45,917 nucleotides of DNA from an uncultured Mollicutes bacterium (GCA_947177025.1 CAMWSQ010000001.1:1-45917); one strand, 5' to 3'. Shown: positions 5,890 through 35,180, counted from the first letter of the stretch. A program made the numbers and translations. The notes: a model not told the origin generated them from the sequence alone.

Positions 5890-8800
5890 TTAGGCATCAT
5901 ATTTTAATGAACCATAACCATAAATTTCTAAACTTTCAATTGTAATATATTTGTTACTTCCTTTTGTACATGTACCTTCAATCTTAATATATACATCACC
6001 AGCGATATATGCCTCTGAAGAAGTTATCGTATGCTCAACTGACGTTTTGTTTGATCCATTTGTCTGTGGTGAACCAAATTGTGTCCAATTGATTCCGTCT
6101 GTAGAATAATATACAGTAATGTTTGAAGTTCCCTTGTCCTCAACTGTAAAGGCGATATCAATCTTACTTAAATTTGTTACCTTAAACTTAGAAACAAGGA
6201 TTGTTGGAGAATCATTTTTTACTGTCGTACTACCGCTTGCAGAGCCTGTGTTCGCATTAGTATATGTGAATTCTTTATCAGCAAATGTTTTGCTTGAACT
6301 ACTCCAAATACTTCTTTCTTCAGCAACAGAATTTAATTCTTCTAATGCAGCTTGTAATTTCGCATAATTGCTAACTTGTGATTTTTCTGCTGTTGTTAAA
6401 CCGTCATAAGCATCTTGTGCTGCATATATTGCATCAGAAGCATTAACATCAATTGTTGCTGGAATTGCATCAATTAATAATTTTACATAAGTAACACGGA
6501 TATTAGATATTGTATCTGTATCATCAATTAATAACTTTTGTTCCTCAGTAAGTTCATTATAAGCCTCTACTACAGCTTGACAAGAAGCAATGTCTGTTAA
6601 ATCCACTTCATTTATCAATGTTGTCACATGATCAATAGCTTCTAAGTTAGCATATGCTGCCTCAGCATCAAATAGCTTTTGTCTATTCGTAATCTTAGCT
6701 TTGTCTGTTGTAGATAGAGCATTGTACTCATTTCTTGCTGCTGTGATTGCTGCTCTTGATTCTAATGTAACATCACCGATTGCATCAATCTTAGCAATAC
6801 ATGAATCAATTGCATATGTAGCAAATGCTGCTTCTGCAGCAGTTAGTGTACTTAAGTTGCTAACCTTTACAGAACTATCTGTCTTAGTAAGTGTGTTATA
6901 TGCTGCTCTTGCAGAGGATATTGCACTACCGCTATTTGCATCCACTGTACCGATTGCATTAATCAATCCTTCAACATAAGTAACACCTGCTGCTAAATAA
7001 TTTGAATATGCAGTTGTTACCTTAGCATAAGATGCGCTTACTCTAGTCTTTAATTCAGGACTTAAATTCTTATATGCTTCTTTTGCAGCATTAATTGCAT
7101 TTAAGCATGCATCAGTATATGTAATACTTGCTGGAATTGCATTAACTTTTGCTTCAAATTGAGCAATCATTTGTTGATTTAATTCTTCTGAATTATATTC
7201 TTCAAATGAAATAGAGTTAATTGTTAAATCCTTGAATGTACCCATTGTAACTGCTTTAGCATCTCCTGGTTGGAAGTTAACAGGTTGAACCATATATGTT
7301 CCTGCTGTTAATACAACTGAACCATTGCCCTCTAGCATAGCAACACCTGCTTCATTACAAAGTACAGCATCTTCATTACAATTTAATGTTACTGTTGCTG
7401 CTCTATCTAGACTAAATGCATAAACCTTCTTATTCATTTTTCCTGGAGTAAGAGAACTTGGATATGTTGTAATGTTGTTTACTGTTGTTCCAGAAGGTAA
7501 CAATGAAATATCACTCATAGTTATATCTGTCATTGCTACTGGATGATCCTTAGAAACACCCACCTTAGAAGCAATTGCTTTTCTAGCAAGAGTAACATCT
7601 GTTTGCAATACATAATCTCCTGTAGGAATATAGGATTGTGCAGGATTTGTATCAAATGAACTATAATTAATACCTGCAGAACTGAATTGACAGTTATTTG
7701 AAACTGTTTGAGACTTATCAGTTACAACTGTAGCTAAAGAACCCTTATTGGATAAGTAACTTGCAACAGAATCCTTGTAGCTCTTAATTGCGCCACTTTC
7801 AACTGCAGTTGGGCTCTTACACATATAGAACATATTATATTCTGAGAAAATATAAGAGTTAGCACGTGTATTCATCGCATAATCGGTTTGACCAATAAAT
7901 GCGTTGTTATACATATGAATATTTGCATTACGAGCAAGAGGTCCTCTGGCCTTACATAAATACCATAAGTTATGATGGTAAGTTAAATTAAATTGTAAAG
8001 ATGAGTCAGAAGAACCAACTAAATTTGTCTTATGGCAACCCTCAAAATAGTTATAGCTTACTGTTAAATATTGACCTCTCTTGAAGTCACAAGAACCATC
8101 ACCCTCAGATTTATCACTTTCAGCAGGGCTAGTAATACTAGGACCATAGAATTCATTATTATGAATCCAACATCTTTCTACACTTGCTGTAAGAATTGAA
8201 TTTGTATTTGCAGATGCTTGAACACCTTCCATACCAATAGCATCTTCTGGTGTATTGATGAAGGTTAAATTTCTAACCTCGAAGCTCTTACCTAAATCTG
8301 GAGCAGAGCTTTCAGCCATATAATGGAATCCCCATCCATCAATAACAGCATCTTCTCCTACACCTTCTAAAGTAACATCTTTACCTGATTTCATACGAGC
8401 CATATGTCCATTATCGCCTACTGTTCCACCATGGCCTGTAGAATCATAAATTGTTAAACCATCAATCTTTGGAGTGGCAGATGCATTAAATGTTCCCTTC
8501 TTATATAAACCTGTATTAGATACACAACCAACAAATCTTACTACTAGTGGAATATCATTCTCTGCTAACAAGCGGATAATACCTTGGTTAGTATTTGGTG
8601 TACCACCATTGCTTGTTGCTCCACCACCTGTATCTTGACCTACAGAGTTCAAAATGTTACCAATACCTCTAACAGTAACACCCTTATAGGATAATTCTAT
8701 TGTATTCTTGTTTTCATCAGTTACCCAAAGAACGATAGCGTTCTTCTTTAATGAACCATCATCATTATAAGCACCAACACCATCTGTATAATTAAAGTGT

Positions 8801-11463
8801 GCAAAACCAGAACGGTCATAAGCACCTACATTAAATGTAGCTGTTGATGGATTAGCACTTGTAGTTCCAACAGGAAGGATAGTTGCTTCATATGAGCCTG
8901 GAACAACACCAAGTATATCTGCACGCATATTTCCATTAACTTCTCTAAAGTAAACGCTCTTTTCATTAAGTACTCTAACAATACCGCTTGAATTCTTTAA
9001 TGAAATAGAATATCCAGTTGCACCTGATACCTTTTTAAAGGAAATAAATGCTGCTTCATTTAATCCGGCTGCTTCTATAATTTCAACAGAACCCTTTTGT
9101 CCTACTAATCCTTGACCACCTTCAACATAGTCAGAAGCTTCTGGATCCTTTTCCCATTTTACATAAATAGTTGTATCTTTAGTAAATGGAGTTGAGAAAT
9201 CAAATTCATTAGAATATGAACTATCTGCATACCAACCAGCAAAGATATAATTTGGTCTTTGTGGTGTATCAGGTTCATCTATTGTTTCACCGCGATAAAC
9301 TTCGATATCTTCTATTTCAGCACCTACAAAGTTAATAATTAATGGTTTTTCAGCCCATTTTGCATGTAAAGTATAATTCTTTGTAACTGGTTGACTGAAA
9401 TCATGCTTTGTAATATAGTCAACATCGTCATACCAACCCTTAAAGATATAGCCATCTCTTACTGGTTCATCAGGAGCTGCAACCTTTTGTCCTTCATTTA
9501 CTTGTTTATCTGGAATATTGCTACCACCCTGTGAATTGTATTGAATTGTAAATACAGGTAGGCTTGGATCTACAGGTTTTTCTTCCCACTTTGCATATAA
9601 TGTAATTTCATCTACAATCTTAGTTGTAAAATCAAAAGCCGTAGTAGAAGTAAGATCTGTAAACCAACCTTTAAAGATATAGCCATCTCTTACTGGATCT
9701 GTAGGCTCAGTCAATGCTTGCCACTTATTCACAATAACATCTTGAACCGCTGAACCATTTCTAGCATCCAAATGTACTTCCACTTCTACTGGAACATTGT
9801 ATTCCATTAAAGTAAATACATTAATTTTTACGGAAGCATTAGTTGTGATTGTATATGTACCAGCAGGTAATCCATCCATAGATATTGTCTTTGATACTTG
9901 GTAGTTAATTTCCCAAGTGGCAAGTACAGTATCTGCTTGTTTCAATTGCACTGTTACAACTTTAGTAGTTCCAGAAGCACCAGAGCCTGTTAAAGTAAAT
10001 CCATTGCTTATTGTACCATTTACAGTAAATGTAACGCTTTTACCTTGTGTATTTAAAATTGCAGCCTCTGTCTTTACACCAGCTTCAACTGCAAATTGAC
10101 CTATAGTCAATTCCTTATCTGTCTTACTATTAGAATCAAGATTTGATTGTGCAAGAGTATGGAAAGAACCGAATGGGAATTTAAGTGTTTTATCTTCTAC
10201 ATCAGAAGATGTCTTTGCTTCCCACTTTGCATAAAGCGTAATGCTTGATGTTATTACAGTATCAAAATCCCATTCCTTTGTAAAATCTTTATCTTCATAC
10301 CAACCAACAAATGTATGGTTTGCTTTTACTGGATCTGGGTTAGGTTTTATAACTTTTCCACCTACTGAAACAGTCTGTGTAGATAATGAAGTTCCACTAA
10401 ACGTTACAGTGCATTCTGTTGCTTCCCATTTCGCATGAAGTGTTGCATTTCCACTGATTGTTGCACCTGGTGTTGCAGATGTTGTATATGAAGCATCTAA
10501 ATACCAACCAACAAAATGCCAGCCTTCTACATCCTTTACAGAAGGAAGTGGATTAGGCAATGCCGTTCTTCCATTTAATTTTGTAGGTGTTGAACCATGA
10601 CCATGCATATTAAATGAAATAGTATACGTGTTTGGTCCTGGTGGAGTAACTTGCTTTTCCTCCCACTTTGCATATAATGTTGTATTCGCAGTAAGTGTTG
10701 CTCCTGCTACTGCCTCAGTTCCTGTATCAAATGTTGGTGTTGTAAACCAACCAATAAAATGCCAGCCTTCTACATCTGCTACTGGTGGTAATGTTGCAGG
10801 TAATGCTGTTGCTTCTGCTACATCCTCTGGCTTTTCTCCATGTTCACTAACATAAGTAATTGAATATTTCTCTGTTGGTGTAGGCGGAGTTTTCTTTGCT
10901 TCCCACTTTGCATATAGTGTTATATTCGCAGTAAGTGTTGAGCCTGCTTCTGCAGCTGTTGCAAATGTATCTTCTAAATACCAACCAACAAAGTGCCAAC
11001 CTTCTACATCTGCTACTGGTGGTAATGTTGCAGGTAATGCTGTTGCTTCTGCTACATCCTCTGGCTTTTCTCCATGTTCACTAACATAAGTAATTGAATA
11101 TTTCTCTGTTGGTGTTGGTGGAGTAGGTTTATCTTCTTCCCACTTTGCATATAAAGTCACATTACCTGTTACTACATCTAGACTAAAAAGCCATTCTGCA
11201 GTACAAGTAGTATCCTTATACCAACCCTTAAATATATATCCCTCTCTAGTTGGGTCTGTAGGCTTAGTTACCTTACTACCCTTATGAATGGTTTGAGATG
11301 GGACTTGAGAGCCATTCCTTGAATCGAAGGTAACTACATATTCTGCTACTTGATCTGTTTTGTCATCGTCTTTTTTGTCATTACCACCTGTAGAACAAGC
11401 TGCCAAACCGACAACAGCAACTAGGCAAACTAGCAAAATAATTACCTTTCTTCCTAATTTCAT
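5890..11463 (-). CDS. 1857-aa cell-surface lipoprotein with Flg_new repeats, a PL1 pectate-lyase-like beta-helix, helical repeats and a C-terminal beta-sandwich
   Basis: Signal peptide with lipobox LAAC (Cys23). Eight repeats end in (L/I)(Y/H)(A/V)KW(E/A), with GYIFKGWY- or WHFVGWY-type cores. The PL1 signature reads CWIHNNEF ... TVSYNYFEGCHKTNLVGSSDS ... TYHHNLW ... ARGPLAR ... IHMYNNAF, at roughly 7850..8700. Confidence 0.85.
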   Translation of the reverse strand: MKLGRKVIILLVCLVAVVGLAACSTGGNDKKDDDKTDQVAEYVVTFDSRNGSQVPSQTIHKGSKVTKPTDPTREGYIFKGWYKDTTCTAEWLFSLDVVTGNVTLYAKWEEDKPTPPTPTEKYSITYVSEHGEKPEDVAEATALPATLPPVADVEGWHFVGWYLEDTFATAAEAGSTLTANITLYAKWEAKKTPPTPTEKYSITYVSEHGEKPEDVAEATALPATLPPVADVEGWHFIGWFTTPTFDTGTEAVAGATLTANTTLYAKWEEKQVTPPGPNTYTISFNMHGHGSTPTKLNGRTALPNPLPSVKDVEGWHFVGWYLDASYTTSATPGATISGNATLHAKWEATECTVTFSGTSLSTQTVSVGGKVIKPNPDPVKANHTFVGWYEDKDFTKEWDFDTVITSSITLYAKWEAKTSSDVEDKTLKFPFGSFHTLAQSNLDSNSKTDKELTIGQFAVEAGVKTEAAILNTQGKSVTFTVNGTISNGFTLTGSGASGTTKVVTVQLKQADTVLATWEINYQVSKTISMDGLPAGTYTITTNASVKINVFTLMEYNVPVEVEVHLDARNGSAVQDVIVNKWQALTEPTDPVRDGYIFKGWFTDLTSTTAFDFTTKIVDEITLYAKWEEKPVDPSLPVFTIQYNSQGGSNIPDKQVNEGQKVAAPDEPVRDGYIFKGWYDDVDYITKHDFSQPVTKNYTLHAKWAEKPLIINFVGAEIEDIEVYRGETIDEPDTPQRPNYIFAGWYADSSYSNEFDFSTPFTKDTTIYVKWEKDPEASDYVEGGQGLVGQKGSVEIIEAAGLNEAAFISFKKVSGATGYSISLKNSSGIVRVLNEKSVYFREVNGNMRADILGVVPGSYEATILPVGTTSANPSTATFNVGAYDRSGFAHFNYTDGVGAYNDDGSLKKNAIVLWVTDENKNTIELSYKGVTVRGIGNILNSVGQDTGGGATSNGGTPNTNQGIIRLLAENDIPLVVRFVGCVSNTGLYKKGTFNASATPKIDGLTIYDSTGHGGTVGDNGHMARMKSGKDVTLEGVGEDAVIDGWGFHYMAESSAPDLGKSFEVRNLTFINTPEDAIGMEGVQASANTNSILTASVERCWIHNNEFYGPSITSPAESDKSEGDGSCDFKRGQYLTVSYNYFEGCHKTNLVGSSDSSLQFNLTYHHNLWYLCKARGPLARNANIHMYNNAFIGQTDYAMNTRANSYIFSEYNMFYMCKSPTAVESGAIKSYKDSVASYLSNKGSLATVVTDKSQTVSNNCQFSSAGINYSSFDTNPAQSYIPTGDYVLQTDVTLARKAIASKVGVSKDHPVAMTDITMSDISLLPSGTTVNNITTYPSSLTPGKMNKKVYAFSLDRAATVTLNCNEDAVLCNEAGVAMLEGNGSVVLTAGTYMVQPVNFQPGDAKAVTMGTFKDLTINSISFEEYNSEELNQQMIAQFEAKVNAIPASITYTDACLNAINAAKEAYKNLSPELKTRVSASYAKVTTAYSNYLAAGVTYVEGLINAIGTVDANSGSAISSARAAYNTLTKTDSSVKVSNLSTLTAAEAAFATYAIDSCIAKIDAIGDVTLESRAAITAARNEYNALSTTDKAKITNRQKLFDAEAAYANLEAIDHVTTLINEVDLTDIASCQAVVEAYNELTEEQKLLIDDTDTISNIRVTYVKLLIDAIPATIDVNASDAIYAAQDAYDGLTTAEKSQVSNYAKLQAALEELNSVAEERSIWSSSSKTFADKEFTYTNANTGSASGSTTVKNDSPTILVSKFKVTNLSKIDIAFTVEDKGTSNITVYYSTDGINWTQFGSPQTNGSNKTSVEHTITSSEAYIAGDVYIKIEGTCTKGSNKYITIESLEIYGYGSLKYDA
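10657..11124 (-). repeat. In-frame tandem duplication of a 234-bp (78-aa) Flg_new repeat unit
   Basis: 10766..10881 and 11000..11115 are identical over 116 nt at an offset of exactly 234 bp. The encoded units TPPTPTEKYSITYVSEHGEKPEDVAEATALPATLPPVADVEGWHF(V/I)GW are near-identical. Confidence 0.85.
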
Positions 11464-11669: not shown

Positions 11670-11801
11670 TTATTTTCCCCAACGAACTGCGTTAGGACTT
11701 GGAGCAGGAAGGCTTCCTCCTGGAATATCTACACTTACAGAACAAATATCTTCAATTTGTACTTTTTCTTCTTCTAAAATTGGTTTTTCATATTTTTTCA
11801 T
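11670..11801 (-). CDS. Unannotated 43-aa ORF; candidate RRE-recognised (RiPP-type) precursor peptide
   Basis: Hand translation gives MKKYEKPILEEEKVQIEDICSVSVDIPGGSLPAPSPNAVRWGK. An RBS AAGGAGA lies 10 nt upstream of the ATG, immediately after the stop of the 560-aa gene, and a hairpin follows. Residues Y4-x-x-P7-x-L9 match the YxxPxL leader motif of lasso-type precursors. Confidence 0.5.
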   Translation of the reverse strand: MKKYEKPILEEEKVQIEDICSVSVDIPGGSLPAPSPNAVRWGK

Positions 11802-11819: not shown

Positions 11820-13502
11820 TTAAGCTTGAGCTCCAAGAACTGTATAAACTGTAGTGAATCCTTCTACCCACTCACCATTTGCATCTTCTCTTGAATAAGC
11901 TGTAGCAGTTATTTCTTTGCCTACATATTGTTCAGCAAGATTAGCACCATCATTTGATACAGCAACAACAGCTACATAATAGAAAGTATTGTTTTTTACA
12001 CCAAATGTATAAGTTTCACCATTTACTTCAGCTGAATAAATTTCACCTTTAGATGTAAGAGAGTCAGTAAGTGTGAATAATTCTGTAATGTCAAATCCAT
12101 CACCTAAGCCTTCACCAGTTAAAACAACTTTCATATTTTCTTTCATTGAATTCCAATAATCAGCCTTTATATTTTCAACAATGAATACATATCTAACTAA
12201 TTCAGTTCCCTCATCGTTATATCCAGTTGATTGATTAAACATAACACTTGGCTCTGGATCAGCTACAAAGCTAATATGATGAATCCATAAAGAACCCTCA
12301 GTTGAACCGAAATAATAATCACCTGCAGCAGGAATATTAATTTCTGCTAAAGCTGGATTCTCTCCATCAAATTTATCAGTTGTTGAAAGATCTAATTCAT
12401 TAGGACCCAAAACAGAAACAACTACGCTCTTACCACTACTTCCACTTCTTACCCAAAGAGCAAGTTTTCCTGAATTAGAAGCATGTAAAATCATTCCGTT
12501 CTTTGATTCAGATACACTTAATGATCCACCTGTTTTAATTGCGTTTTCTGAAGATCCTAAATCACCACAAGCCTTTGCAGAAGCAGCAAATGATGTACTT
12601 CCACCTAACATTGAATAACTAGTTCCTTCAAGATGAACATTTCCAGTTGCACGTGAACCAAATACAGCAGCGCCCTTATTCATTAAACCAAAGTCAAGTG
12701 TATTTGCATCAGCAATTACACCAGCTGCCCATGGAGTCCACTTAACATATAAATCAGTATTCTCATTAACTACTGCAGATAAACTAGCCTCAGTAGATAA
12801 TTCTGCATCGCTATAAACACCTGCAAAATCATATCCCCATTTTGTAGGAACATATGAAGGAGCTGATCCTTTTGCTACTTCTTCAACTGTTAAAACACTC
12901 TCGCCATCATGGAAAGTTACATTTACTAATTCTGCTGTAGCTTCAAATTCACCTGTAGTTAAAACAATAGAGAAACTAACCATTTTTACTTCTGTATTAG
13001 ATTTTCCTGATGCTTCTTCAAATGCTGTAAATACTAAATAACCATCAGTGATATCGTCTGCAGTAAATGTTACTGAATCGCCACTTACGCTACTTGCTAT
13101 CTTCTTGTTAGCATCTGCATTTAAGTATAGGCATCTAGTAGATTGATTTCCTTGAGCAACTAGAGTTGCTGTTCCTGCAGAACCAGCTGGAACAGGGAAG
13201 GAAATAACTCCACCTGCAACACCAGTAGTCTTAGTATAAACATCTAAGTATCCAGCAGCACCCTTAGTTGCTTTACCACCCATAGCACCAAGAGTAACGC
13301 CTCCAGTTAAGACATCTCCTGTAGCATAATTCTTTGTTGCTGAAGTTGCACTATAATCCCACGTTGCAGTATCATTTGTGTTTGTCGTGGTTGTTACTTT
13401 ATAAGTACCAAATTCTTCTTCAGCAGCACTTACTTTTACCATTGCCACTGTGAATGCAAATAATGCTACAAAGGCAAATAGTAAACCTTTAATTTTTTTC
13501 AT
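11820..13502 (-). CDS. Secreted protein of unknown function with one Flg_new-type repeat
   Basis: Sec signal peptide MKKIKGLLFAFVALFAFTVAMVKVSA/AEE. There is one WGYDFAGVY...DLYVKW repeat and no recognisable catalytic motif or anchor. Confidence 0.8.
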   Translation of the reverse strand: MKKIKGLLFAFVALFAFTVAMVKVSAAEEEFGTYKVTTTTNTNDTATWDYSATSATKNYATGDVLTGGVTLGAMGGKATKGAAGYLDVYTKTTGVAGGVISFPVPAGSAGTATLVAQGNQSTRCLYLNADANKKIASSVSGDSVTFTADDITDGYLVFTAFEEASGKSNTEVKMVSFSIVLTTGEFEATAELVNVTFHDGESVLTVEEVAKGSAPSYVPTKWGYDFAGVYSDAELSTEASLSAVVNENTDLYVKWTPWAAGVIADANTLDFGLMNKGAAVFGSRATGNVHLEGTSYSMLGGSTSFAASAKACGDLGSSENAIKTGGSLSVSESKNGMILHASNSGKLALWVRSGSSGKSVVVSVLGPNELDLSTTDKFDGENPALAEINIPAAGDYYFGSTEGSLWIHHISFVADPEPSVMFNQSTGYNDEGTELVRYVFIVENIKADYWNSMKENMKVVLTGEGLGDGFDITELFTLTDSLTSKGEIYSAEVNGETYTFGVKNNTFYYVAVVAVSNDGANLAEQYVGKEITATAYSREDANGEWVEGFTTVYTVLGAQA

Positions 13503-13599: not shown

Positions 13600-13642
13600 G
13601 AAAAACGCTTACTTTCATTTGCTTTTTATTAAAAAAAATAAA

Positions 13643-13687
13643 AAAACTGTAAAAATATCACCAAAAATGGGAATTTTTTACAGTTTT
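13643..13687 (-). terminator. Terminator closing the five-gene RRE/kinase operon
   Basis: 13-bp AT-rich stem AAAACTGTAAAAA / TTTTTACAGTTTT with a 19-nt loop, followed on the minus strand by a long T-rich run. Confidence 0.5.
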
Positions 13688-13718
13688 AATATTATATATT
13701 AAACTTAAAAAGCTTATT

Positions 13719-14813
13719 TTACTTTATTCCTAACTTCTTATAGAGTTCTTTTTCTTCTTCTGAAATCTTATTTTTTTTGGAAAATAACAACCGAAATAGT
13801 TTACCTGTTTGTGTGAATAGCAGATAAAAAATTCGATGGATTAAACACAACGGATAGGTGAACCAATGCTTTCCTAAATGAGGGTATTTGGCAATACGAT
13901 AGCTTTTATCTGTTAAGAATGTTCCTCCTAGAATGGCTTTGAATTTATAGTTTTTCATTCCAAAGCCTTTTTCTTGAATATCATTTTCTTCCCCAAATCC
14001 ATGAATGCCAGATTTTAATAAGTAATCAACAAAGAATTGAATATCTTCTTTTGGAAAATTATCTAACTCTTCTTCAGTCAAAAAATAAATTGTGTTTAAG
14101 ATGTTATAATATAGCTTTGTATATCCAACTTGTCCAATGATGGAGTGAAGCAAATTCAAATCCATATTCCATTTTTTAAGCATATAATAAAAATCTAATA
14201 TATATCTTAAACCTGCACCTCGCACTAAATGATTTGCAAAATGGTGAAGACAAAATACAAAATGATTTTCATTTGTAAATTCATAAAGATATTCTTCCTT
14301 TTTCACTGCAAGAGAAAAAGGTTTCTTGAAATACTCTAATGTTCGGTAGTGATCAAATAAAGAATAATGCACCTCTACTATATGCCCATCTCTTTCAAAT
14401 TCAATATGATGCTGTGCTTCATAGCCTAAAATCTTATATCCACTTTGAAGCATAATCTCTTTTGCCTCATTAAGTTTATCCGTATTTACTAAAACATCAA
14501 TATCTCCACGTGTTCTAAGAGAAGAATCGGGATATAGTTCGTGAAGAACACTTCCTTTGAAATACAAATGTTTGATTTCTGCCGCATTCAGCTTTTCGGT
14601 AAGCTCCTTTTGCATACGAATAAATGATTCCTGCATGATAGATGCCGAAATATAAAAGGGTCTGTATTCTTTTTTTTGATATACAATATATAAAAATGGT
14701 GTTAGAGCTTGTTCCTTTGCTTTAGAAATAATTTCGGATTCTAAAGTAGGATCCATTTCTAAAGTTTCTTCTTTAAAATATGCCTTTAGCATATCTATAA
14801 TCGGATGCTGCAT
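13719..14813 (-). CDS. Nucleotidyltransferase of the NTP_transf_5 (PF14907-like) type
   Basis: The motif HLYFKGSVLHELYPDSSLRTRGDIDVLV matches the hG[GS]...DxD pol-beta-type NTase core as it appears in the family that co-occurs with PqqD and HprK-like genes. The start lies 1 nt after the ABC gene stop. Confidence 0.7.
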   Translation of the reverse strand: MQHPIIDMLKAYFKEETLEMDPTLESEIISKAKEQALTPFLYIVYQKKEYRPFYISASIMQESFIRMQKELTEKLNAAEIKHLYFKGSVLHELYPDSSLRTRGDIDVLVNTDKLNEAKEIMLQSGYKILGYEAQHHIEFERDGHIVEVHYSLFDHYRTLEYFKKPFSLAVKKEEYLYEFTNENHFVFCLHHFANHLVRGAGLRYILDFYYMLKKWNMDLNLLHSIIGQVGYTKLYYNILNTIYFLTEEELDNFPKEDIQFFVDYLLKSGIHGFGEENDIQEKGFGMKNYKFKAILGGTFLTDKSYRIAKYPHLGKHWFTYPLCLIHRIFYLLFTQTGKLFRLLFSKKNKISEEEKELYKKLGIK

Positions 14814-14814
14814 A

Positions 14815-16398
14815 CTACACCCCCTTAAATGGAATGACTCTTTGACGTTCCATTTCCTTACTTCTATGAGAAATGAAAATAATTGTCTTATCTAGCTTCT
14901 GTAATCTTTCCATAATTTCTTCTTCATTCTTTTGGTCTAATGCACTAGAAAACTCATCCAACAACAGTACTGGACGATCCCGTAATAACGCAATTGCTAT
15001 CCAAATACGTTGAATCTGCCCTAAGGATAATCCGCCACCTCGTTCTTTTAACACTGTATCTAGACCATCTTGCATTTCTAATAACTCATCATAAATGTTC
15101 GTAAGCCTTAAAGCTTCTATTGCTTCTTCCTTCGTTTTACCTGTTAGAATATAAATATTTTCAGCAATTGTTCCGCTAAATAAAATGTTTTCCTGTGGTA
15201 CATAGCTAAACAAGGATGGAGATATAGGATACTTCTCTCCTTTATATTTAAGATAAATTTCTCCTTCATCTGGCTTTAAAAAACCCATCATCAGCATAAA
15301 CACTGTGGTTTTTCCAATTCCTGATGGTCCCTGAAATAAAACAATCTCATTCTTTTTAATTTCAAAGGAAAAATCCTTGATTACAGGCTGCTCCTTATAT
15401 GCAAAGGAAACATGTTCAAATACAATAGAATCAAAATCCTCTACTTCTTCTGTTTCTTCTAGCTTTTCTAATTGATATACATGATTGACTCTTTTCTTAG
15501 AAGCCATTGCTAAATTATGCTGATTCCAAAGAGATGAAAAAGATAATAATGGATTTTGAATATTACTAAGTAACTGAACTAATGCAATCATACTACCATA
15601 GGTTAATGCTTGAATGCTAATGGTATATGCACCATAGCATAAAGTGAATAAATAAATGATATTGCTAAAACCAAATAATCCACTATTTGCCATAAACAAA
15701 ATACGATTTCGTTTTCTCTTTGTTTCAATTTGGTTTTCATTTAATCCATCGAAATGGTGGTTTGAAAATTCTGCTGCATCATAGGCTTGGATTAGCTTCA
15801 TTTGTGCAATGGATTCAATAATATACCCATTAAATTTTCCTTCACTTTCTAAAACTCTGTGATGATGTGGACGAATCCATTTTGAATATAGTTTGGCAAA
15901 AATAAGACCCAAAATACCACAGGCAAGAATTAAGATAAGGAAACGATAATCAATGTAAATCACAATTCCAATTGCTATAATCAATCTTGCTGCCTGTCTA
16001 ATAAAATTAGGAATTGTATCCAATTCATACCGTATTAAATTTTGAATATCCGCTGTAAACAACTGTTCAATTTCAGCAGTATGATAGGTTGCAACCTCTG
16101 CGTACTTGCTTTCAAATATACGATAAAATAAAGCTTCCTTTATTTCTTTTTCTCGTTTTATAGAAAAGTGATAATAACACGCATTTTCAATAAGATATAA
16201 AATAATATCCATAAAAATAGCAATAGAAACCCATAAGATATTCCAAAATAATGGCTTCAAATCAGGATTGGTTGTTTTAGATGCCTCTACCGCAAAATCT
16301 ACTAGCCTACTTGTAAGAATAGGAACTGCCAATAAAAAGCATGAATAAAAGAAAGCAATGACAGATAAGATGGCACTATATTTTTTATTTAATTTCAT
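14815..16398 (-). CDS. ABC exporter, fused permease and ATPase
   Basis: Six-TM N-terminal half. Walker A GPSGIGKTT, signature LSLGQIQR, Walker B LLLDEFSSALD. The likely start is ATG at 16398 (MKLNKKYS), forming an ATGA overlap with the peptidase stop; the supplied track starts at 16413. Confidence 0.9.
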   Translation of the reverse strand: MKLNKKYSAILSVIAFFYSCFLLAVPILTSRLVDFAVEASKTTNPDLKPLFWNILWVSIAIFMDIILYLIENACYYHFSIKREKEIKEALFYRIFESKYAEVATYHTAEIEQLFTADIQNLIRYELDTIPNFIRQAARLIIAIGIVIYIDYRFLILILACGILGLIFAKLYSKWIRPHHHRVLESEGKFNGYIIESIAQMKLIQAYDAAEFSNHHFDGLNENQIETKRKRNRILFMANSGLFGFSNIIYLFTLCYGAYTISIQALTYGSMIALVQLLSNIQNPLLSFSSLWNQHNLAMASKKRVNHVYQLEKLEETEEVEDFDSIVFEHVSFAYKEQPVIKDFSFEIKKNEIVLFQGPSGIGKTTVFMLMMGFLKPDEGEIYLKYKGEKYPISPSLFSYVPQENILFSGTIAENIYILTGKTKEEAIEALRLTNIYDELLEMQDGLDTVLKERGGGLSLGQIQRIWIAIALLRDRPVLLLDEFSSALDQKNEEEIMERLQKLDKTIIFISHRSKEMERQRVIPFKGV

Positions 16399-16811
16399 AG
16401 TAATTTCCCACAAAATCTTCGAAATAATTTAAAGCGCACAAAAAAACGATATGTACGATACCTTATTCCCTTTAAAAGATATTGCTTATCCTTTCCTTGT
16501 TTTTTATATGCAATGACTTTGCCAATCAGTTGAGCTCCCTCTATATTTGGCTCTTCTATAGTCTGATGATCTCCTACAAAGGTGTATGTATTATCCTTGA
16601 TTCTTCTTACTCGATGCAAAACAAATTGACCATTTTGTCTGCGATATAATAAGATATCTCCTATACGAATAGAAACAATTTTGGATAATTCCACAACATC
16701 ATTTGAATGAAGCATAGGCTGCATACTTGTCCCCTGTACTGGAAATGTAAAGGTCTGATTGTTTTCAAATGCCTCTAAAATCAAAGGATAAAAATCCTCC
16801 ACTCTAATCAT
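16395..16811 (-). CDS. Small soluble S24/S26-family peptidase with a Sec11/SipW-like Ser/His arrangement
   Basis: GTSMQPML matches the GxSMxP nucleophile box, FVLHRV matches the vHRv box and FVGDHQ resembles the GDN box. There is no N-terminal TM segment. The start is ATG at 16811 or GTG at 16823, and both overlap the PqqD stop. Confidence 0.65.
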   Translation of the reverse strand: MIRVEDFYPLILEAFENNQTFTFPVQGTSMQPMLHSNDVVELSKIVSIRIGDILLYRRQNGQFVLHRVRRIKDNTYTFVGDHQTIEEPNIEGAQLIGKVIAYKKQGKDKQYLLKGIRYRTYRFFVRFKLFRRFCGKLL

Positions 16812-17070
16812 TATACATGCCACGTTTCTTTAATTCTTCAATAAATTCTAGGATATCATTTAAAACAACATCATAAGCAACATCATATTCTGTAACCATA
16901 GCCTTAGCTATTTCTGAAGAAGTCTTATTATTCTTAAGTTGCTCATAAATATATGCTCCTGTTTCAGAAACATTATACACCTTACTAAAATCTACTCCAC
17001 CATCCAAAAGAGGAATAATCATATATTCTTTTCCTACGTGCTTTAAAATAAAATTTTCATTTAAAGGCAT
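16804..17070 (-). CDS. PqqD-family RiPP recognition element (RRE) protein
   Basis: 88 aa, with the pattern ...YNVSETGAYIYEQLKNNKTSSEIAKAMVTEYDVAYDVVLNDILEFIEELKKRGM, typical of stand-alone PqqD peptide chaperones. The start overlaps the kinase stop by 10 nt. Confidence 0.8.
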   Translation of the reverse strand: MPLNENFILKHVGKEYMIIPLLDGGVDFSKVYNVSETGAYIYEQLKNNKTSSEIAKAMVTEYDVAYDVVLNDILEFIEELKKRGMYND

Positions 17071-17879
17071 AAATCCATCTCCAATCTTGTTTTTAATGTA
17101 GTAACAGCATCAGGATTCATATTGCACCCATATGAATAAATTGGTAGTTCTAAAATTTGATCAACCATTTTATTCCATACATCAACTGAATTCTTTTTGG
17201 GTGGTTCAATTTGTCCTAATAACAATCGCATTGCTTCTCTCACTCCAACTTTAGAAACTTGATTTTCTTTTTCTTGTTTTAAAAAGACAATGCATGTTAA
17301 TGGAGCTGTAATATTTTGGTGAATTTGATGCTTTCCACTCCAAGGATTAGAGTAAAGCATCAATTGACCATCTTCTAAAACAATAATATTTTTATCATCA
17401 TTTAATGAAACTGCATCTGTATAGGTTCTCCAAAGTCTAGCATGCGTACTTTTTCCTGTGCCACTCTTTGCACTAAATAAAATACCTTTAGAATGATAAA
17501 CAACGGAAGCGCCATGAATAAATATTGCATTTTGTTTTTGATTTAAAATATATAATAAAGCATATTGACTCAATAAATATTCTGTAACAAAATCCTTTTG
17601 AATCAAATATAAATCTATTCTTTTTTTGTTATATACAATTCCACCAATAATTCGATCATTACTTTTTTGAAGCTGGATTGTTTTATCATCTATTTCGTAT
17701 ATATCATAGAATTCTGTATGGCGTGTTGGTTCTCCTGTAGGCAAACTAAGCTCTTCAAAATGACTGTGAATCTCATATTCTCCAATCTCATTTGTCTGAT
17801 AGGTTTCAATATTATGAAATTGTTCCTCAAATTTAAAATCAATGTTGATATTAATATGAGCAATTTGAATCGTTAACAT
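17061..17879 (-). CDS. HprK-related (HPr kinase C-terminal domain-like) kinase
   Basis: IHGASVVYHSKGILFSAKSGTGKSTHARLW contains the HprK-type P-loop. This resembles the kinases found in paeninodin-type lasso clusters. Confidence 0.7.
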   Translation of the reverse strand: MLTIQIAHININIDFKFEEQFHNIETYQTNEIGEYEIHSHFEELSLPTGEPTRHTEFYDIYEIDDKTIQLQKSNDRIIGGIVYNKKRIDLYLIQKDFVTEYLLSQYALLYILNQKQNAIFIHGASVVYHSKGILFSAKSGTGKSTHARLWRTYTDAVSLNDDKNIIVLEDGQLMLYSNPWSGKHQIHQNITAPLTCIVFLKQEKENQVSKVGVREAMRLLLGQIEPPKKNSVDVWNKMVDQILELPIYSYGCNMNPDAVTTLKTRLEMDLCL

Positions 17880-18125: not shown

Positions 18126-19361
18126 TTAGTTTAATTCATACTTAATCATGTTTTCATTTAAAATGAAGATTTTTTCTTTTCTAGAATTCAATTTGGATGT
18201 TAATATCTTTAAGTTCAAAAAGTTATTTAATATTTTAAGTGCGCCTTGTTTAGTAATATTCAGATTACAAAATTCTATGAAGCCTTTATAATTGAACCAA
18301 CCTTTTTTCTTATTTACTATTATTCTTTTTAAATAATGTGCTTCAGTACTAGTAATAGATTCTCCACTCAATGCCAAAGTTTCTCGAATCGCTGTAACAT
18401 TTTTATAAATTAAGTAATATTGATTAGAAAGCTTACATAAATATATCAAAAAATATGTTAAATCATTATGAGAATTTCTGGTATCATCTATTGCTTTATA
18501 ATAATTATTTTTATCATCATTAATTGCTTCACTAATATAGGCGGGTAATATTGCAACTTTTTCCATTAATATACTAATCCATAACGAAACCATTCTAGCA
18601 GTTCTACCATTAAAATCCATATAAGGATGAATATATAAAATATAATAATGAGCGATAAATGGTAATAACATAAACTGCATTGGGTTATCATTTAAATGAT
18701 TATTTACATAATCAAATAAGGAGTTCATACATTCATCAATTTTATCAACATCGCAACCATCATGCCCACCGATTACAACCATTGCTTCTCTATAGTATCC
18801 TTTTAATTCATCTTCTTTTTTTAAAGAATTATAGCTTAAAAGTTTATATAACTTCAATAAATTTTCCTTATCAAACTTTGGTTTGGAAGAAATGAATTTA
18901 TACCCCTGAAACATATTAAAAATAATTTGTTCGTTGGTATCTTTTACTTTTTCAGACTCCATTATTTCTAATATCTTTTTTCTGGTAGTATTAACACCTT
19001 CTATTTCTAAACTACCCTCCAATTCAGAAGAAAGTCTCGACAATATCATTTCATTATAGTTTTCTGATACTATTGTACTATTCTTAATTTGTAAATCATT
19101 TAAAAAGAAATCAGTATAATCTCTTACTGAATATAATAATTCTAACGCTTGATAATAAAATATTTTTTTAGAATTAAATGACTTCAAGGGCAAATCACAT
19201 TTATACTCTGACAAATAATCCTCTTTAAATCTCAAATACTCATTTAACTCTGAATTGGTTAAAAGAAAATCATATTTCTTATTCATTCTTATATCTTCGT
19301 TAGTATAATAATGATTGCCACCTAATGCTGAAAGAATAATATCTTCGTATTTTGAACCCAT
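18126..19361 (-). CDS. Fic/DOC-family protein
   Basis: Fic motif HPYMDFNGRTAR and an N-terminal inhibitory-type motif SLEIEG ([ST]xxxE[GN]). The promoter at 19384..19412 places the start at ATG 19361 (MGSKYED) or 19373, not at the track start of 19442. Confidence 0.85.
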   Translation of the reverse strand: MGSKYEDIILSALGGNHYYTNEDIRMNKKYDFLLTNSELNEYLRFKEDYLSEYKCDLPLKSFNSKKIFYYQALELLYSVRDYTDFFLNDLQIKNSTIVSENYNEMILSRLSSELEGSLEIEGVNTTRKKILEIMESEKVKDTNEQIIFNMFQGYKFISSKPKFDKENLLKLYKLLSYNSLKKEDELKGYYREAMVVIGGHDGCDVDKIDECMNSLFDYVNNHLNDNPMQFMLLPFIAHYYILYIHPYMDFNGRTARMVSLWISILMEKVAILPAYISEAINDDKNNYYKAIDDTRNSHNDLTYFLIYLCKLSNQYYLIYKNVTAIRETLALSGESITSTEAHYLKRIIVNKKKGWFNYKGFIEFCNLNITKQGALKILNNFLNLKILTSKLNSRKEKIFILNENMIKYELN

Positions 19362-19383
19362 ACTATCATCCATCCTTTGATTC

Positions 19384-19412
19384 ATTATAAACCTAATCGT
19401 AAACCTTGTCAA
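19384..19412 (-). promoter_or_regulatory. Fic promoter with flanking GGTTTACGAT direct repeats
   Basis: Minus strand reads TTGACA (19412..19407), 17 nt, then TATAAT (19389..19384). GGTTTACGAT occurs once inside the spacer (forward atcgtaaacc 19394..19403) and once upstream (19431..19440). Confidence 0.65.
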
Positions 19413-19460
19413 GGAATTGTTGTAAACTTTATCGTAAACCAATTATAACCTGCAAAATTA

Positions 19461-25113: not shown

Positions 25114-27801
25114 ATGACTAGAAATGAATTTGACATTCTACATTATATTTATAAAAACGGCAAAAAAAGCTATAGAGATATCAGCAAAGCAACAGAGGTA
25201 TCCATTGGAACTGTTTCTAAGGTGATGAAACAACTTTTAGAAAAACAATATATATTCAATGATGAAATCACTTCATTAGGTATGCAGGCATTAGAAGCCT
25301 ATCGTGTTCATAATGCAATCATTTTAGCAGCAGGTCCCTCCTCAAGATTTGTACCCTTATCCCTAGAACAGCCAAAGGGATTGTTCAAGGTAAGAGGAGA
25401 GATATTGATTGAAAGACAAATCCAGCAGCTTCAAGATGCCGGAATTGAGAATATCTATCTTGTTTTAGGATATAAAAAGGAAGCCTTCTTCTATTTGAAG
25501 GATAAATATAATGTTCATTTTATTATCAATACAGAATACAACAAAAAGAATAACATTGAATCCTTATACATTGCAAAGGACAAGCTAGGATCAAGCTATA
25601 TTTGTTCTTCCGATGATTATTTCACCATAAATCCATTTCAAAAATATGAATATCAAACCTTCTATGCATCTATCTATACTCCTCAAAAAACAAAGGAAAT
25701 GTATGTGGATGTAAATACGAAAGATGAAATTATAGTTATGGCAAAGGGGAGACCCTCAGGAAATATTTTATTAGGTCACTCTTATTGGAATGAGAATTTT
25801 TCTAAAGCCTTTACTTCTCTTATGGAAAAATATCATGATACTGGAGAATATGATAGTGCCTTTTGGGAAAAGCTTGTTGCAGACCATTTATCCGTTCTTC
25901 CTAAAATGGAAATCAAAAGATATCCAGAGGATACAATTTTTGAATTTGATTTTGTTGAAGAACTACGCGCCTTTGATAACAAATACGTCAATCACACCGA
26001 AAGTAAAATCATGGCAAACATTTGTTTGGCTCTAAAATGTAATGAAGCAGATATTTTTAATTTCAAGCCTGTGTATGAAGGTCTTACAAATACTTCCTTC
26101 ATCTTTACAGTTAAAAATATTCAATATGTGTATCGTCAGCCTGGAGAAGGAACTGGAGCGGTTATTAATCGGAAGCATGAAAAAATAGCATTAGAAGTCG
26201 CAAAGGAAAATCATTTTGATCCAACCTTCCTTTATATGGATGAAAACGAAGGATGGAAAATATCCTATTATATTCCTTCTTTCAGAGAACCAGATTATGC
26301 AAATCCAGAAGATTCTAAGATTGTAATTCAAACCTTGCAACGACTTCATAAAATTCAAGTCAAAGAAATTGATTGGACATTTGAGCCTGTTACTGAAGCA
26401 CTGAAGCTAGAAACTGCTTTGAAAGAAAAAACAACAATTGCAATGTCTGACTTTGATGAATTAAAGGAACGCATTTTAAAGCTATATGAAAAGACAAAGG
26501 GAGACGGAATTGAAAAATGCTTCTGTCATGGAGATACATACAAGCACAATTGGATGATTACTCCTACTTCTACTATACTCATTGATTGGGAATACGCAGG
26601 TTTAGGTGATCCAGGTATTGACGTTGGATATTATATTGTAGACGCAATGTATTCCTTTGAAGAGGCAGACCAATTTATTCGCGCTTATTGTAAAGACACA
26701 TATTCTGATGCATTACGCTTCCATTATCTTGCTTACACAGCTATTATTGCCTATTATTGGTTTGTTTGGGCGCTCTATAGAGAATCCTTTGGAGCTATCA
26801 TAGGAGAATCTCTTTACAATTGGTATACTATGGCAAAAACATATTCCTTATATTTAGAAAAGGAATATGCAATTCAAAGTAAACTATTAAATCGCTACGA
26901 ATTTGAAGTATTAAAATACATTGAAGAAAATTCAAACGTCCCTTATGATTCACGATCCATCTCAAATAGTCTTCTTTTCTCATGGGACAAGGTCAAAGGA
27001 ATTCTAGCAGAGGGTTTAGAAAAAGGAATCCTTAAAAACAATTCTTCTACTCTCTCTATTACCGAAAAAGGAAAAGCCCTATTAGAACCCTATCAGGTTG
27101 AACGTGCTGTCATTATGGCAGCAGGCTTTGGTTCAAGAATGGTGCCAATTACTCTAGAACGACCAAAGCCATTAGTTAAAGTCAATGGAATCAGAATCAT
27201 TGACACTCTATTAGACGCTTTAATTTCAAAAGGAATCAAGGAAATCTATATTGTTACAGGATATAAAAAAGAAATGTTTGGTGAGCTTTTAGAAAAATAT
27301 CCATTCCTTCAATTGATTGAAAATGACGATTATAACATTACCAATAACATTTCTTCTATTATGAAGGCATTGCCTCACATAGACAATTGTTATATCTGTG
27401 AAGCAGATTTCTTAGTATCTAATCCAAACATTATCTCAAAATATCATTATTGCTCAAATTATTTGGGAGCCTATGTACGCGAAACAGATGATTGGTGTTT
27501 TAGAAGTGAAAATCAATATGCAGTGGATTATAAAAAAGAAAATACCAACTGCTATCAAGCCTTTGGTATTTCTTATTGGAATGCAGAGGATTCCAAAAAG
27601 CTAAGAAGCTATCTTCCTCAAATCTATAAAACAAAAAAAGGAAAACAAGAATTTTGGGAATCCTGTATTTTCAATTATTATAAGAATGATTTCAAAGTGG
27701 AAATTAATATCTGTTCTAAATTCGATATTGTAGAAATTGATAATTTTAGTGAACTCGTAGAAATTGATCCATCCTATAAATCCTACACAAATAAACAATA
27801 A
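25114..27801 (+). CDS. Triple fusion of wHTH-LicC-like nucleotidyltransferase, LicA-like choline/aminoalcohol kinase, and a second wHTH-LicC-like nucleotidyltransferase
   Basis: aa 1-60 form an HTH, then ILAAGPSSRF...PKGLF. The kinase part carries CHGDTYKHNWM (Brenner motif) and LIDWEYAGLGDPGIDVGYY (choline-kinase motif). A second HTH is followed by IMAAGFGSRMVPITLERPKPLVKVNG. Confidence 0.85.
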   Translation: MTRNEFDILHYIYKNGKKSYRDISKATEVSIGTVSKVMKQLLEKQYIFNDEITSLGMQALEAYRVHNAIILAAGPSSRFVPLSLEQPKGLFKVRGEILIERQIQQLQDAGIENIYLVLGYKKEAFFYLKDKYNVHFIINTEYNKKNNIESLYIAKDKLGSSYICSSDDYFTINPFQKYEYQTFYASIYTPQKTKEMYVDVNTKDEIIVMAKGRPSGNILLGHSYWNENFSKAFTSLMEKYHDTGEYDSAFWEKLVADHLSVLPKMEIKRYPEDTIFEFDFVEELRAFDNKYVNHTESKIMANICLALKCNEADIFNFKPVYEGLTNTSFIFTVKNIQYVYRQPGEGTGAVINRKHEKIALEVAKENHFDPTFLYMDENEGWKISYYIPSFREPDYANPEDSKIVIQTLQRLHKIQVKEIDWTFEPVTEALKLETALKEKTTIAMSDFDELKERILKLYEKTKGDGIEKCFCHGDTYKHNWMITPTSTILIDWEYAGLGDPGIDVGYYIVDAMYSFEEADQFIRAYCKDTYSDALRFHYLAYTAIIAYYWFVWALYRESFGAIIGESLYNWYTMAKTYSLYLEKEYAIQSKLLNRYEFEVLKYIEENSNVPYDSRSISNSLLFSWDKVKGILAEGLEKGILKNNSSTLSITEKGKALLEPYQVERAVIMAAGFGSRMVPITLERPKPLVKVNGIRIIDTLLDALISKGIKEIYIVTGYKKEMFGELLEKYPFLQLIENDDYNITNNISSIMKALPHIDNCYICEADFLVSNPNIISKYHYCSNYLGAYVRETDDWCFRSENQYAVDYKKENTNCYQAFGISYWNAEDSKKLRSYLPQIYKTKKGKQEFWESCIFNYYKNDFKVEINICSKFDIVEIDNFSELVEIDPSYKSYTNKQ

Positions 27802-31314: not shown

Positions 31315-32086
31315 GGATACTATCCTCAATTGATTTTATTTTTTCATCCAATTGCTCAACGATAAAGCTTTGAATGAATGGAGAAGCTGGATTATGATAA
31401 ATATTAGATGGTGTATCCAATTGAACAATATGATTATCATCAATTACCATAATACGATCAGATAAGCTAAAAGCTTCCTCTTGATCATGTGTAACATAAA
31501 TCATAGTTATTCCATACTTTTCTTGTATCTTCTTTAATTCCTTACGTAATGCCAGCTTAATATTCGCATCTAACGCAGACATCGGTTCATCAAACAAAAT
31601 AATGTCTGGATTTAAAACCAATGTACGAGCAATAGCAACTCTCTGCTGTTGTCCACCTGATAATTGTCTTGGCTTTTTATGGACATGCTCCTGTAGTCCT
31701 ACAATTTCAATAATTTCATTTACACGATTTTCGATTTCTTCTTTTGAGACCTTTTTAACCTTTAAAGCATAGGCAATATTATCATACACCGTCATATTCG
31801 GAAACAAAGCATAATTTTGGAATACAATTCCCATGTTTCTTTCTCTTGGTGTTTTATGCGTAATATCTTCACCCTGCTTAAAGATTGTTCCATATGTAGG
31901 TTCTTCTATGCCAATTAAAATACGTAGAAGTGTTGTTTTTCCACATCCTGAGGAACCCAAAAGGGAGAGAAACTCTCCCTTATATACTTGGAAATAAATG
32001 TTTTCTAAAACGATTCTATTTCCATATTTTTTTCCTATGTTTTCGATAGTTAAAATTGCTTCTTTTTCCATAATTATAGTTTCCAT
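31292..32086 (-). CDS. ABC transporter ATP-binding protein (PotA/FbpC-like)
   Basis: Walker A GSSGCGKTT, signature LSGGQQQR, Walker B ILFDEPMSALD. An alternative start exists at 32071. Confidence 0.9.
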   Translation of the reverse strand: METIIMEKEAILTIENIGKKYGNRIVLENIYFQVYKGEFLSLLGSSGCGKTTLLRILIGIEEPTYGTIFKQGEDITHKTPRERNMGIVFQNYALFPNMTVYDNIAYALKVKKVSKEEIENRVNEIIEIVGLQEHVHKKPRQLSGGQQQRVAIARTLVLNPDIILFDEPMSALDANIKLALRKELKKIQEKYGITMIYVTHDQEEAFSLSDRIMVIDDNHIVQLDTPSNIYHNPASPFIQSFIVEQLDEKIKSIEDSIHGIHDKK

Positions 32087-33217: not shown

Positions 33218-34045
33218 TTATTCACTTAGATCTTCTTTACTATATGCTTCTAATCCGTGATTTTTTTGTTCCTCAACGGGAGGGAGCGTCATATACTCTC
33301 CATAAAATTTCGTTAAAATGGCATCATAATTTTTAGGAATATTATATTCCTTGCCCTCAAACCAACCCTTAGCTACAACAAAATCTTCTTTCTCATAAAC
33401 ATATTTGTCAGGATTTTGATATGGACTATCAAAATATCCAATGTATTTTGTATACTTCTTATTTGTTTCTGATAGAAGCTTATGATACTTTTTGATGACC
33501 TTAGGTATACTACAAAAGCTCAATAGGAATTTATGCCATACTACAATATGGAATTTAATAAATCTTTTGACCAAAGAACCATCTAAAGCTTTTAAAGAAA
33601 AATTACAGAAATAAAATTTCTTTCTTCTTTTAGAAATTCGTTTTAAATTTCGTTTTACTTCTTCTTGTGTATCTCCAAAAGCATCTAATGGAAAAATATC
33701 AATGAATAATCCTGTAGACTTTTCTTTGGCTCCTGTTTCATTGATTAGAACACTTGTATCTACTACCTTTGCAAAATCTAAACGGAAGTTTGGATTACTT
33801 TCGGTATCTACAAAATCATACTTCTTTTCAGCTTGAATTGCTTCTTTAAAGGCATCATAGTCTTCTCTTAAAATCCATAAATCAATATCATCATCCCAAG
33901 GAATATATCCCTTATGGCGTATAGCTCCTATAAGTGTTCCATAGGCCAAATAATATGTTAAATTCTTTCTTGTGCAAAGTTCATCGATGTAATCCAACAT
34001 TTGAATTTGCTTAGCACGAATTTCTTCCTGTGTTAATTTTTTCAT
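33218..34045 (-). CDS. licD: LicD-family phosphotransferase (phosphocholine-type substituent transferase)
   Basis: YYLAYGTLIGAIRHKGYIPWDDDIDLWI is the LicD signature. Confidence 0.85.
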   Translation of the reverse strand: MKKLTQEEIRAKQIQMLDYIDELCTRKNLTYYLAYGTLIGAIRHKGYIPWDDDIDLWILREDYDAFKEAIQAEKKYDFVDTESNPNFRLDFAKVVDTSVLINETGAKEKSTGLFIDIFPLDAFGDTQEEVKRNLKRISKRRKKFYFCNFSLKALDGSLVKRFIKFHIVVWHKFLLSFCSIPKVIKKYHKLLSETNKKYTKYIGYFDSPYQNPDKYVYEKEDFVVAKGWFEGKEYNIPKNYDAILTKFYGEYMTLPPVEEQKNHGLEAYSKEDLSE

Positions 34046-34060
34046 TTCTATACTTCCCCT

Positions 34061-35179: not shown

Positions 35180-35180
35180 A

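Follow-up and report, generated by a model that had tools for sequence, protein, structure and literature searches.

The question raised by positions 11670-11801 of the window (the whole stretch of DNA that was analysed, 45,917 nt long) is whether a 43-codon open reading frame (ORF), which carries a leader of the lasso type in front of a core that could not form a lasso, is a true gene, and if so, into what its product is made and by which enzymes.

The 43-codon gene and its family

Re-reading of the sequence returned exactly the ORF and the translation given in the original prediction, MKKYEKPILEEEKVQIEDICSVSVDIPGGSLPAPSPNAVRWGK, together with the local features that it had described: an AAGGAGA ribosome-binding site right after the stop codon of a 560-aa gene (TAA at 11822-11820, with an 18-nt gap to the peptide ATG), a Y4-x-x-P7-x-L9 motif, and four serines in the tail (S21, S23, S31, and S35). 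The peptide consists of a conserved leader (residues 1 to ~20) and a variable core or tail that ends in RWGK. The homologue search that had been proposed as a check gave a positive outcome, in that a protein search with the 43-aa peptide found six more clusters of 68-87% identity, and family members were located beside enzyme cassettes in other genomes. The reading frame is kept in the orthologues of 76-87% identity and also in the 68%-identical relative P0007. Comparison of the orthologues indicated that the first 23 residues are nearly constant, whereas the C-terminal tail differs in both sequence and length, and synonymous substitutions were observed among the leader codons. When the whole 46-kb window was searched with the leader profile, this ORF was the single match (E = 5e-11). 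The kept frame, the synonymous leader changes and the single profile match therefore indicate that the ORF is not a chance frame. Its shortness, the AT-richness of the genome and the lack of a curated family match could be taken to indicate an accidental ORF in an intergenic region, but the orthologues, the substitution pattern, the profile match, the ribosome-binding site and a family of 2488 clusters leave this explanation scarcely credible. Therefore, the 43-codon ORF is a real and conserved gene.

Pfam and NCBIfam scans of the peptide and seven family members assigned no family, and the sole match was a sub-threshold one (E = 0.016) of the leader N-terminus of one family member to lasso_cyano. 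A sequence search of the PDB with the 43-aa peptide gave nothing meaningful, and inspection of the small ORFs that flank the kinase gene or follow the nucleotidyltransferase gene of the window showed none that was precursor-like.

Family members were found by a motif scan of kinase loci, and a profile was then built from the matches. The members follow the pattern M-x(2-4)-Y-x2-P-x-[L/M/I]-x4-[F/V/I]-x2-E-D-[V/I]-[I/C]-x2-S, after which come 8-25 variable residues, and many of the cores are only 8-13 residues long. In an alignment of 24 diverse members, Y4 and S23 (window numbering) are invariant at a Tyr-to-Ser spacing of 19, E17 and D18 are conserved in at least 90%, and Ser23 is the only invariant hydroxyl residue; in 8 of 35 family peptides, the sequence beyond it is devoid of Ser, Thr and Tyr. 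A database-wide profile search retrieved 2488 related protein clusters, none of which is named. One unusual member comes from Kandleria vitulina DSM 20405 (L057 6234-6587), where a 117-aa protein, 67 bp from the ABC gene of a cassette, joins the family leader (..YIEIVRFDAEDVIATSG..) to a 93-residue 'core'; the system may thus also process small proteins, as does the published family of related systems discussed below (35-200 aa).

The peptide gene lies 1918 bp from the last gene of the enzyme cassette, and the interval contains, 3′ of the nucleotidyltransferase gene, an AU-rich terminator-like hairpin with a U-run and, farther on, a sigma-70-type promoter (Table 1). On this hairpin and promoter, the prediction that the secreted-protein gene and the peptide gene form a transcription unit separate from the cassette was confirmed, in agreement with the original description of a gene 1.9 kb from the RRE operon, behind a terminator and with its own promoter. 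The 560-aa secreted-protein gene is predicted to be co-transcribed with the peptide gene, and its homologue is found directly upstream of the peptide gene in three other loci (L001, L003, and L008). The perfect 10-bp hairpin reported 12 nt past the peptide stop was also recovered; its U-tract (minus strand) is weak, its stem recurs 3′ of the orthologues in those three loci, and it is probably a terminator or a stabiliser. Immediately downstream of it, a gene for an 1857-aa lipoprotein (5890-11463, minus) was observed, which combines eight Listeria-Bacteroides repeats with a pectate-lyase domain and, at the C-terminus, an F5/8-type-C-like region; large lipoproteins homologous to this protein come after the peptide in L001, L003, and L008.

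Table 1. Positions of the putative precursor gene, its signals, the enzyme genes, and comparable peptides and tethered copies in other loci.
Feature	Position	Strand	Remarks
Putative precursor peptide gene (lppA-like)	11670..11801	minus	ATG start, 43 aa
Shine-Dalgarno AAGGAGA	11817-11811	minus	read from sequence; ATG ~10 nt further on
Y4-E-K-P7 codons (candidate RRE-binding YxxP motif)	11781..11792	minus	L9 codon at 11777-11775
Junction motif codons E17-D18-I-C-S-V-S23	11733..11753	minus	Ser23 codon 11735-11733
Perfect 10-bp hairpin, 5-nt loop	11633-11657	minus	starts 12 nt past peptide stop; -18.5 kcal/mol, z = -6.2
560-aa protein with Sec signal	11820..13502	minus	weak match to Listeria-Bacteroides repeat; 18-nt gap to peptide
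Predicted sigma-70-type promoter, TTGACA-17-TGgTACAAT	13599-13571	minus	11/12 matches and extended -10 (TG)
AU-rich 13-bp hairpin with U-run, terminator-like	13637-13693	minus	3′ of nucleotidyltransferase gene; -22 kcal/mol, z = -5.8
lppN-like nucleotidyltransferase (NTP_transf_5)	13719..14813	minus	PF14907, E = 2.8e-32
lppD-like MsbA-type ABC exporter	14815..16413	minus	ABC_membrane and ABC_tran; without peptidase domain
lppS-like archaeal/SipW-type signal peptidase I (S24/S26)	16395..16823	minus	TIGR02228, 1.9e-9; PF00717, 2.5e-9
lppB-like discrete PqqD-type RRE	16804..17070	minus	PF05402, 1.5e-13
lppK-like HprK-related (ScmC-type) P-loop kinase	17061..17879	minus	ScmC and HprK-related model matches, weak
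Large signal-peptide ORFs next upstream of peptide genes	window 11820-13502	minus	also L048, L029, L024, L070, L010, L043, L060, L073, L082, L088, L090, L092, L096, L097, L099
Tethered core copies	L048 9188-9694; L024 5380-5919; L029 9123-9605; L047 229-798; L060 8985-9695; L090 8207-8710; L092 8186-8683; L003 6599-6820

The enzyme cassette and its association with the peptide family

Five enzyme genes in the order K-B-S-D-N are located on the same strand as the peptide gene (Table 1), and their catalytic motifs are present. The homologues of the kinase all match PF27840, and SGTGKST and NDDK are invariant in the kinase alignment. The RRE residues Asp72, Phe76, and Tyr62 align with D70, F74, and Y60 of LppB, the RRE of the published linear polyphosphorylated peptide (LPP) system; in a PDB comparison, its nearest structures were the lasso RREs TfuB1 and TbiB1, both weak matches, and the published LppB structure was absent. 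The peptidase has the catalytic residues Ser33 (GTSMQP), His70 (VLHRV), and Asp85 (VGDHQ), which align with S29, H68, and D93 of the LPP peptidase LppS, and it carries no N-terminal membrane anchor as read from the sequence. This enzyme, which did not figure in the original prediction, is by analogy with LppS the probable leader peptidase. Neither an Asn-synthetase-like lasso cyclase nor a transglutaminase-like B2 protease was found among the ORFs of the 46-kb window, so that the absence of a cyclase noted originally extends to the protease as well.

Other genes of the surroundings were recorded. The kinase gene is preceded on its own strand, at a distance of 247 bp, by a Fic/DOC-family gene (438 aa, 18126-19442, minus); relatives of this Fic protein were not found in the other 80 kinase loci. 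Two unusual fusion proteins (25114-27801, plus, and 28744-31329, minus) each contain winged-helix and nucleotidyltransferase domains, to which one adds a choline/aminoglycoside-kinase-like domain and the other an ABC permease. At ~16 kb from the cassette, a polysaccharide/capsule-type locus (33218-45827, minus) encodes LicD-like proteins, Caps_synth, GT8 and GT4 glycosyltransferases, a Wzx-type flippase, a polymerase-like membrane protein, sugar-nucleotide enzymes and an initiating transferase.

The association between the peptide family and the cassette was examined in a scan with the kinase alignment over one genome per species, which found at least 598 relatives, and 80 loci were kept. A family peptide is present in 26 of the 44 loci that combine the kinase, PqqD and S24 genes, versus 1 of the 39 kinase loci without S24 (Fisher p = 1.1e-8). 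Nearly all family peptides (35 of 36) are on the strand of the kinase gene, with a median distance of 238 bp to a cassette gene and a usual place just upstream of the kinase gene, an arrangement seen in many distant Bacillota; one locus (L052) has six in tandem. In L001, L003, and L008, the order is that of the window, i.e. kinase, PqqD, S24 peptidase, ABC exporter, NTP_transf_5, secreted protein of 533-560 aa, and peptide. The co-occurrence, strand and distance data thus identify the window peptide as a displaced member of a family that is normally inside the cassette, and they support the link to the kinase/PqqD/nucleotidyltransferase cassette that had originally been an inference. Reciprocally, eight peptides were drawn from the database-wide profile search and their neighbourhoods were examined: a full cassette lies within 3 kb in four, a kinase remnant beside the peptide in one, and neither a cassette nor a kinase remnant within 8 kb in three.

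A truncated kinase ORF (..FTAKSGTGKSTH..) was also seen right after a peptide-lipoprotein pair that is otherwise without a cassette (L092 8701-9012, L093 6733-7200), which looks like a decayed cluster that has retained its precursor. The remnant in L093 is adjoined by a Fic gene, as is the window kinase.

Relation to known systems and proposed maturation

The LPP system was described in May 2026 (Popov et al., Nat Commun 2026; PMC13381572) with the reference cluster lppA-K-B-S-D-N of Paenibacillus alginolyticus DSM5050, and the family was defined on ~126 Bacillales clusters (PMC13381572). The RRE LppB binds the leader of LppA via Y-16 and P-13, as established by a crystal structure and mutants; LppK places up to four phosphates on core Ser3 of LppA, which S3A abolishes; and LppS, which has a Ser-His-Asp triad, cuts after F-E-T and requires LppB (PMC13381572). 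The precursors have the consensus YxxPxVLxHQxIxFETxxS and the operational motif Px9Fx[T/A] (PMC13381572). The window cassette matches this cluster type in its five enzymes and in their order, i.e. an HprK-like kinase, a discrete PqqD RRE, a SipW-like Ser-His-Asp peptidase, an MsbA-type exporter and NTP_transf_5, and a cyclase is found neither in the window nor in the LPP clusters. The peptidase triad and the Asp of the RRE that binds the leader Tyr are kept in the window proteins. Both kinds of precursor begin with YxxPx[V/L], in which Y4 and P7 of the window peptide are the counterparts of Y-16 and P-13 of LppA, and both have a conserved Ser just past the junction and a C-terminus that is hypervariable. 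Nearby (33-45.9 kb of the window) is a capsule/polysaccharide locus, and the published clusters are often embedded in such loci.

The two systems also differ. The leader of the window family reads P-x6-[F/V/I]-x2-E-D-[V/I]-[I/C]-x2-S and that of LPP P-x9-F-x-[T/A]-x2-S, with Tyr-to-Ser spacings of 19 and 18, respectively; at the published motif Px9Fx[T/A] the window peptide has P-x6-V-Q-I. Neither the window peptide nor its family was matched (E > 1) by a profile of 11 published LPP precursors, and the reverse search with the window family against the published LPP precursors failed too; the family profile aligned with them only in two short pieces, namely M-k-k-Y-x-x-P and a hydrophobic-x-F-E-x that lies three residues earlier. 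In pairwise comparison, the window peptidase is 26% identical to LppS versus 36-39% to the cluster-9 enzymes, and the window RRE is 27% identical over 48 aa to LppB versus 29% to the cluster-9 RRE. Cluster 9 of the published similarity network, in which LPP is cluster 1, comes from Ruminococcus and CAG:56 and was tabulated as 'RRE others' with the precursors not determined, and the text makes no mention of Clostridia, lipoproteins, or secreted or surface proteins (PMC13381572). While lppA precedes K in LPP, the window precursor gene is downstream of the cassette, in its own predicted unit and behind a secreted-protein gene; the host here is not one of the Bacillales but an Anaeroplasmataceae-like gut bacterium, placed in or near that family by the names that the kinase homologues carry, and the chemistry proposed for it is a prediction from the genes. 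A literature search on ScmC and PqqD, NTP_transf_5, PF14907 or EDVITTS-like motifs found nothing relevant. By its genes, their order and the logic of its precursor, we assign the window locus to the LPP type, a kind of system already published, of which it is predicted to be a divergent branch with precursors previously unidentified.

The leader raises the alternative of a lasso precursor, with the genes for its cyclase and B2 protease at another place in the genome. The locus indeed has a YxxPxL leader and a PqqD-type, B1-like RRE, the nearest solved RRE structures are those of lasso B1 proteins, and one family member weakly matches the lasso_cyano N-terminus. Paeninodin-type lasso clusters likewise carry kinase and nucleotidyltransferase genes: in the paeninodin/pseudomycoidin systems (PadeK, PsmK, PsmN), a YxxPxL-type leader is bound by a PqqD-like B1 protein, an HprK-like kinase phosphorylates a precursor Ser in a leader-dependent manner, and NTP_transf_5 adds further groups. 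Unlike those systems, the window has neither the macrolactam cyclase nor the B2 cysteine protease, and its core is unable to form a lasso. As the original prediction had it, the penultimate leader Thr is absent and Asp or Glu is missing at core positions 7-9: no placement of the cut gives Gly, Ala, Ser or Cys at core position 1 with Asp or Glu at 7-9, and D25, the sole acidic residue past the junction, would be at position 7 only with a core start at Ile19. Moreover, many family cores of 8-13 residues are too short for a lasso, and the family goes with the SipW-like peptidase rather than with lasso genes. The proposed acceptor Ser is near the junction, versus C-terminal in the paeninodin/pseudomycoidin type, and the proposed leader removal by a serine signal-peptidase homologue is likewise different. 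A lasso product is therefore extremely improbable, and comparative genomics together with the LPP precedent for the same enzymes supports the reading of the original prediction, a non-lasso precursor for a PqqD-type RRE.

Likeness to two other systems was partial. With the SipW-type signal peptidase I of Bacillus subtilis (substrates TasA and TapA), the window peptidase has the fold and the catalytic triad in common, but it lacks the N-terminal anchor, and its proposed substrate is an RRE-bound cytoplasmic leader rather than a Sec signal peptide. To the SynChlorMet cassette there are weak matches of the kinase to ScmC (TIGR04249) and of the RRE to ScmD (TIGR04248), but the scores are far under the cut-offs, the window has no radical-SAM enzymes, and the precursor is of another type.

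We consider it very probable that the ORF encodes an LppA-like precursor, which the cassette at 13719-17879 would turn into a linear, phosphorylated RiPP in a leader-dependent manner. The LPP system is the analogy from which we take the binding of the leader, the transfer of phosphate to the conserved Ser and the help of the RRE in cleavage. A transcript started at the promoter in front of the gene for the 560-aa secreted protein would be translated into the peptide, whose Y4-x-x-P7-x-L9 leader motif would be bound by the PqqD-type RRE. The HprK-like kinase would phosphorylate Ser23, probably several times, and the SipW-like peptidase, to which the RRE would present the substrate, would cut between I16 and S21, so that Ser23 would stay in the product. 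The nucleotidyltransferase may elaborate the phosphate, and the ABC transporter would export a product of roughly (C)SV-pS-VDIPGGSLPAPSPNAVRWGK.

By analogy with LppA, Ser23 is the best candidate phospho-acceptor, rather than the Pro/Ser-rich tail at large, since it is the sole invariant hydroxyl, is the last Ser, Thr or Tyr in 8 of 35 peptides, and is the counterpart of LppA Ser3. Estimates of the cut site differ with the guide used, i.e. after I16 by alignment of the hydrophobic-x-F-E-T, after C20 by alignment of the Ser, and after I19 by the distance from Tyr to the scissile bond in LppA. The scheme is uncertain as to where exactly the peptide is cut, what the nucleotidyltransferase contributes and what biological function is served. 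A cut right after the invariant Ser, as the small-x-small rule of signal peptidases would place it, was downgraded, as it would leave eight peptides without a phosphorylatable residue and the LppA Ser is core residue 3.

The short, variable and often acidic tails and the six tandem copies in one locus resemble signalling peptides or bacteriocins, which could indicate a bacteriocin- or pheromone-like peptide that is secreted unmodified after leader removal by the peptidase and export by the ABC transporter only, the kinase and nucleotidyltransferase acting elsewhere; the lack of a visible effect of lppN deletion in the published system (PMC13381572) would agree. We regard this as highly improbable, since no gene accompanies the family peptides more constantly than that of the kinase, unphosphorylated LppA is a poor substrate of LppS (PMC13381572), and the invariant Ser at the junction is best explained as an acceptor. 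Against the phosphopeptide reading itself count the location of the peptide gene away from the cassette, the blindness of the LPP profile to the family, the other motif in place of Px9Fx[T/A], the identities of only 26-27% to LppS and LppB, and the three of eight sampled peptides that are cassette-free within 8 kb.

Secreted and tethered proteins beside the peptides

The pairing of the window peptide with a secreted protein recurs in the family. Of 46 family peptides, 23 are preceded on their own strand by an ORF of at least 400 aa that ends no more than 150 bp away. A signal-like N-terminus is present in 20 of these 23 ORFs, versus a background of 3.8% in the same loci, and the peptide genes start 10-60 bp past the large signal-peptide ORFs. 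The upstream proteins are diverse (Listeria-Bacteroides repeats, LRR_5, Glug), and within groups they share only the C-terminal 120-300 residues, in which a Pfam scan found no domain. BLASTP of the 560-aa protein against the peptide-adjacent secreted proteins of L006 and L012 detected no similarity.

On the other side of the peptide, in 8 of 30 loci, the gene that comes next specifies a lipoprotein or a protein anchored in the membrane, the C-terminus of which copies the peptide core (Table 1). These tethered proteins consist to 80-90% of a low-complexity linker that is acidic and rich in Thr and Pro. One peptide, for example, ends ..DSFHIIEEGPIKLPFIPADQS and its tethered protein ..DDFHIVTEAPIELPFIPAG (..GELPFVPAE against ..IELPFVPAF). 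In a permutation test, the observed similarity was reached in 15 of 5000 permutations. In the close relative L003, a 73-aa lipoprotein ends ..INWGPLT and the peptide ..VRWGK, and no tethered core-copying protein was found in the window.

The peptide could accordingly be viewed as a partner (ligand, regulator or anchor-competitor) of the co-transcribed secreted or surface protein, with the cassette only maturing and exporting it or being dispensable. The recurrent pairing with signal-bearing ORFs, the sharing of C-terminal domains alone within groups, the membrane-tethered copies of the C-terminal motif, and the three of eight sampled peptides with neither a cassette nor a kinase remnant within 8 kb speak for this view. 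It is compatible with the phosphopeptide reading, but an RRE-binding leader would be senseless without an RRE pathway, the window has no tethered mimic, and homology among the secreted proteins does not extend over all loci; as an explanation in its own right we consider it improbable. A tentative combination, itself rather unlikely, is, for this branch of the family, a three-part surface module of a large secreted protein with a conserved C-terminal domain, an exported phosphopeptide and often a tethered copy of its core, rather than a free-standing natural product.

These findings suggest that the LPP-type enzyme set serves a far larger and unannotated precursor family of ~2500 protein clusters with a distinct leader-core junction, which ranges over gut and rumen Clostridia and Anaeroplasmataceae and for which annotators may use the recognisable signature Y-x2-P-x-[LM]-x4-hydrophobic-x2-E-D-[VI]-[IC]-x2-S. 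The pairing with secreted proteins together with the tethered copies suggests a functional tie to surface proteins, and thereby gives a lead on function that the published LPP work did not supply. If the three-part module were true, the peptide would be a soluble, phosphorylated analogue of the tethered ligand, and could control the attachment or release of surface proteins or signal between cells.
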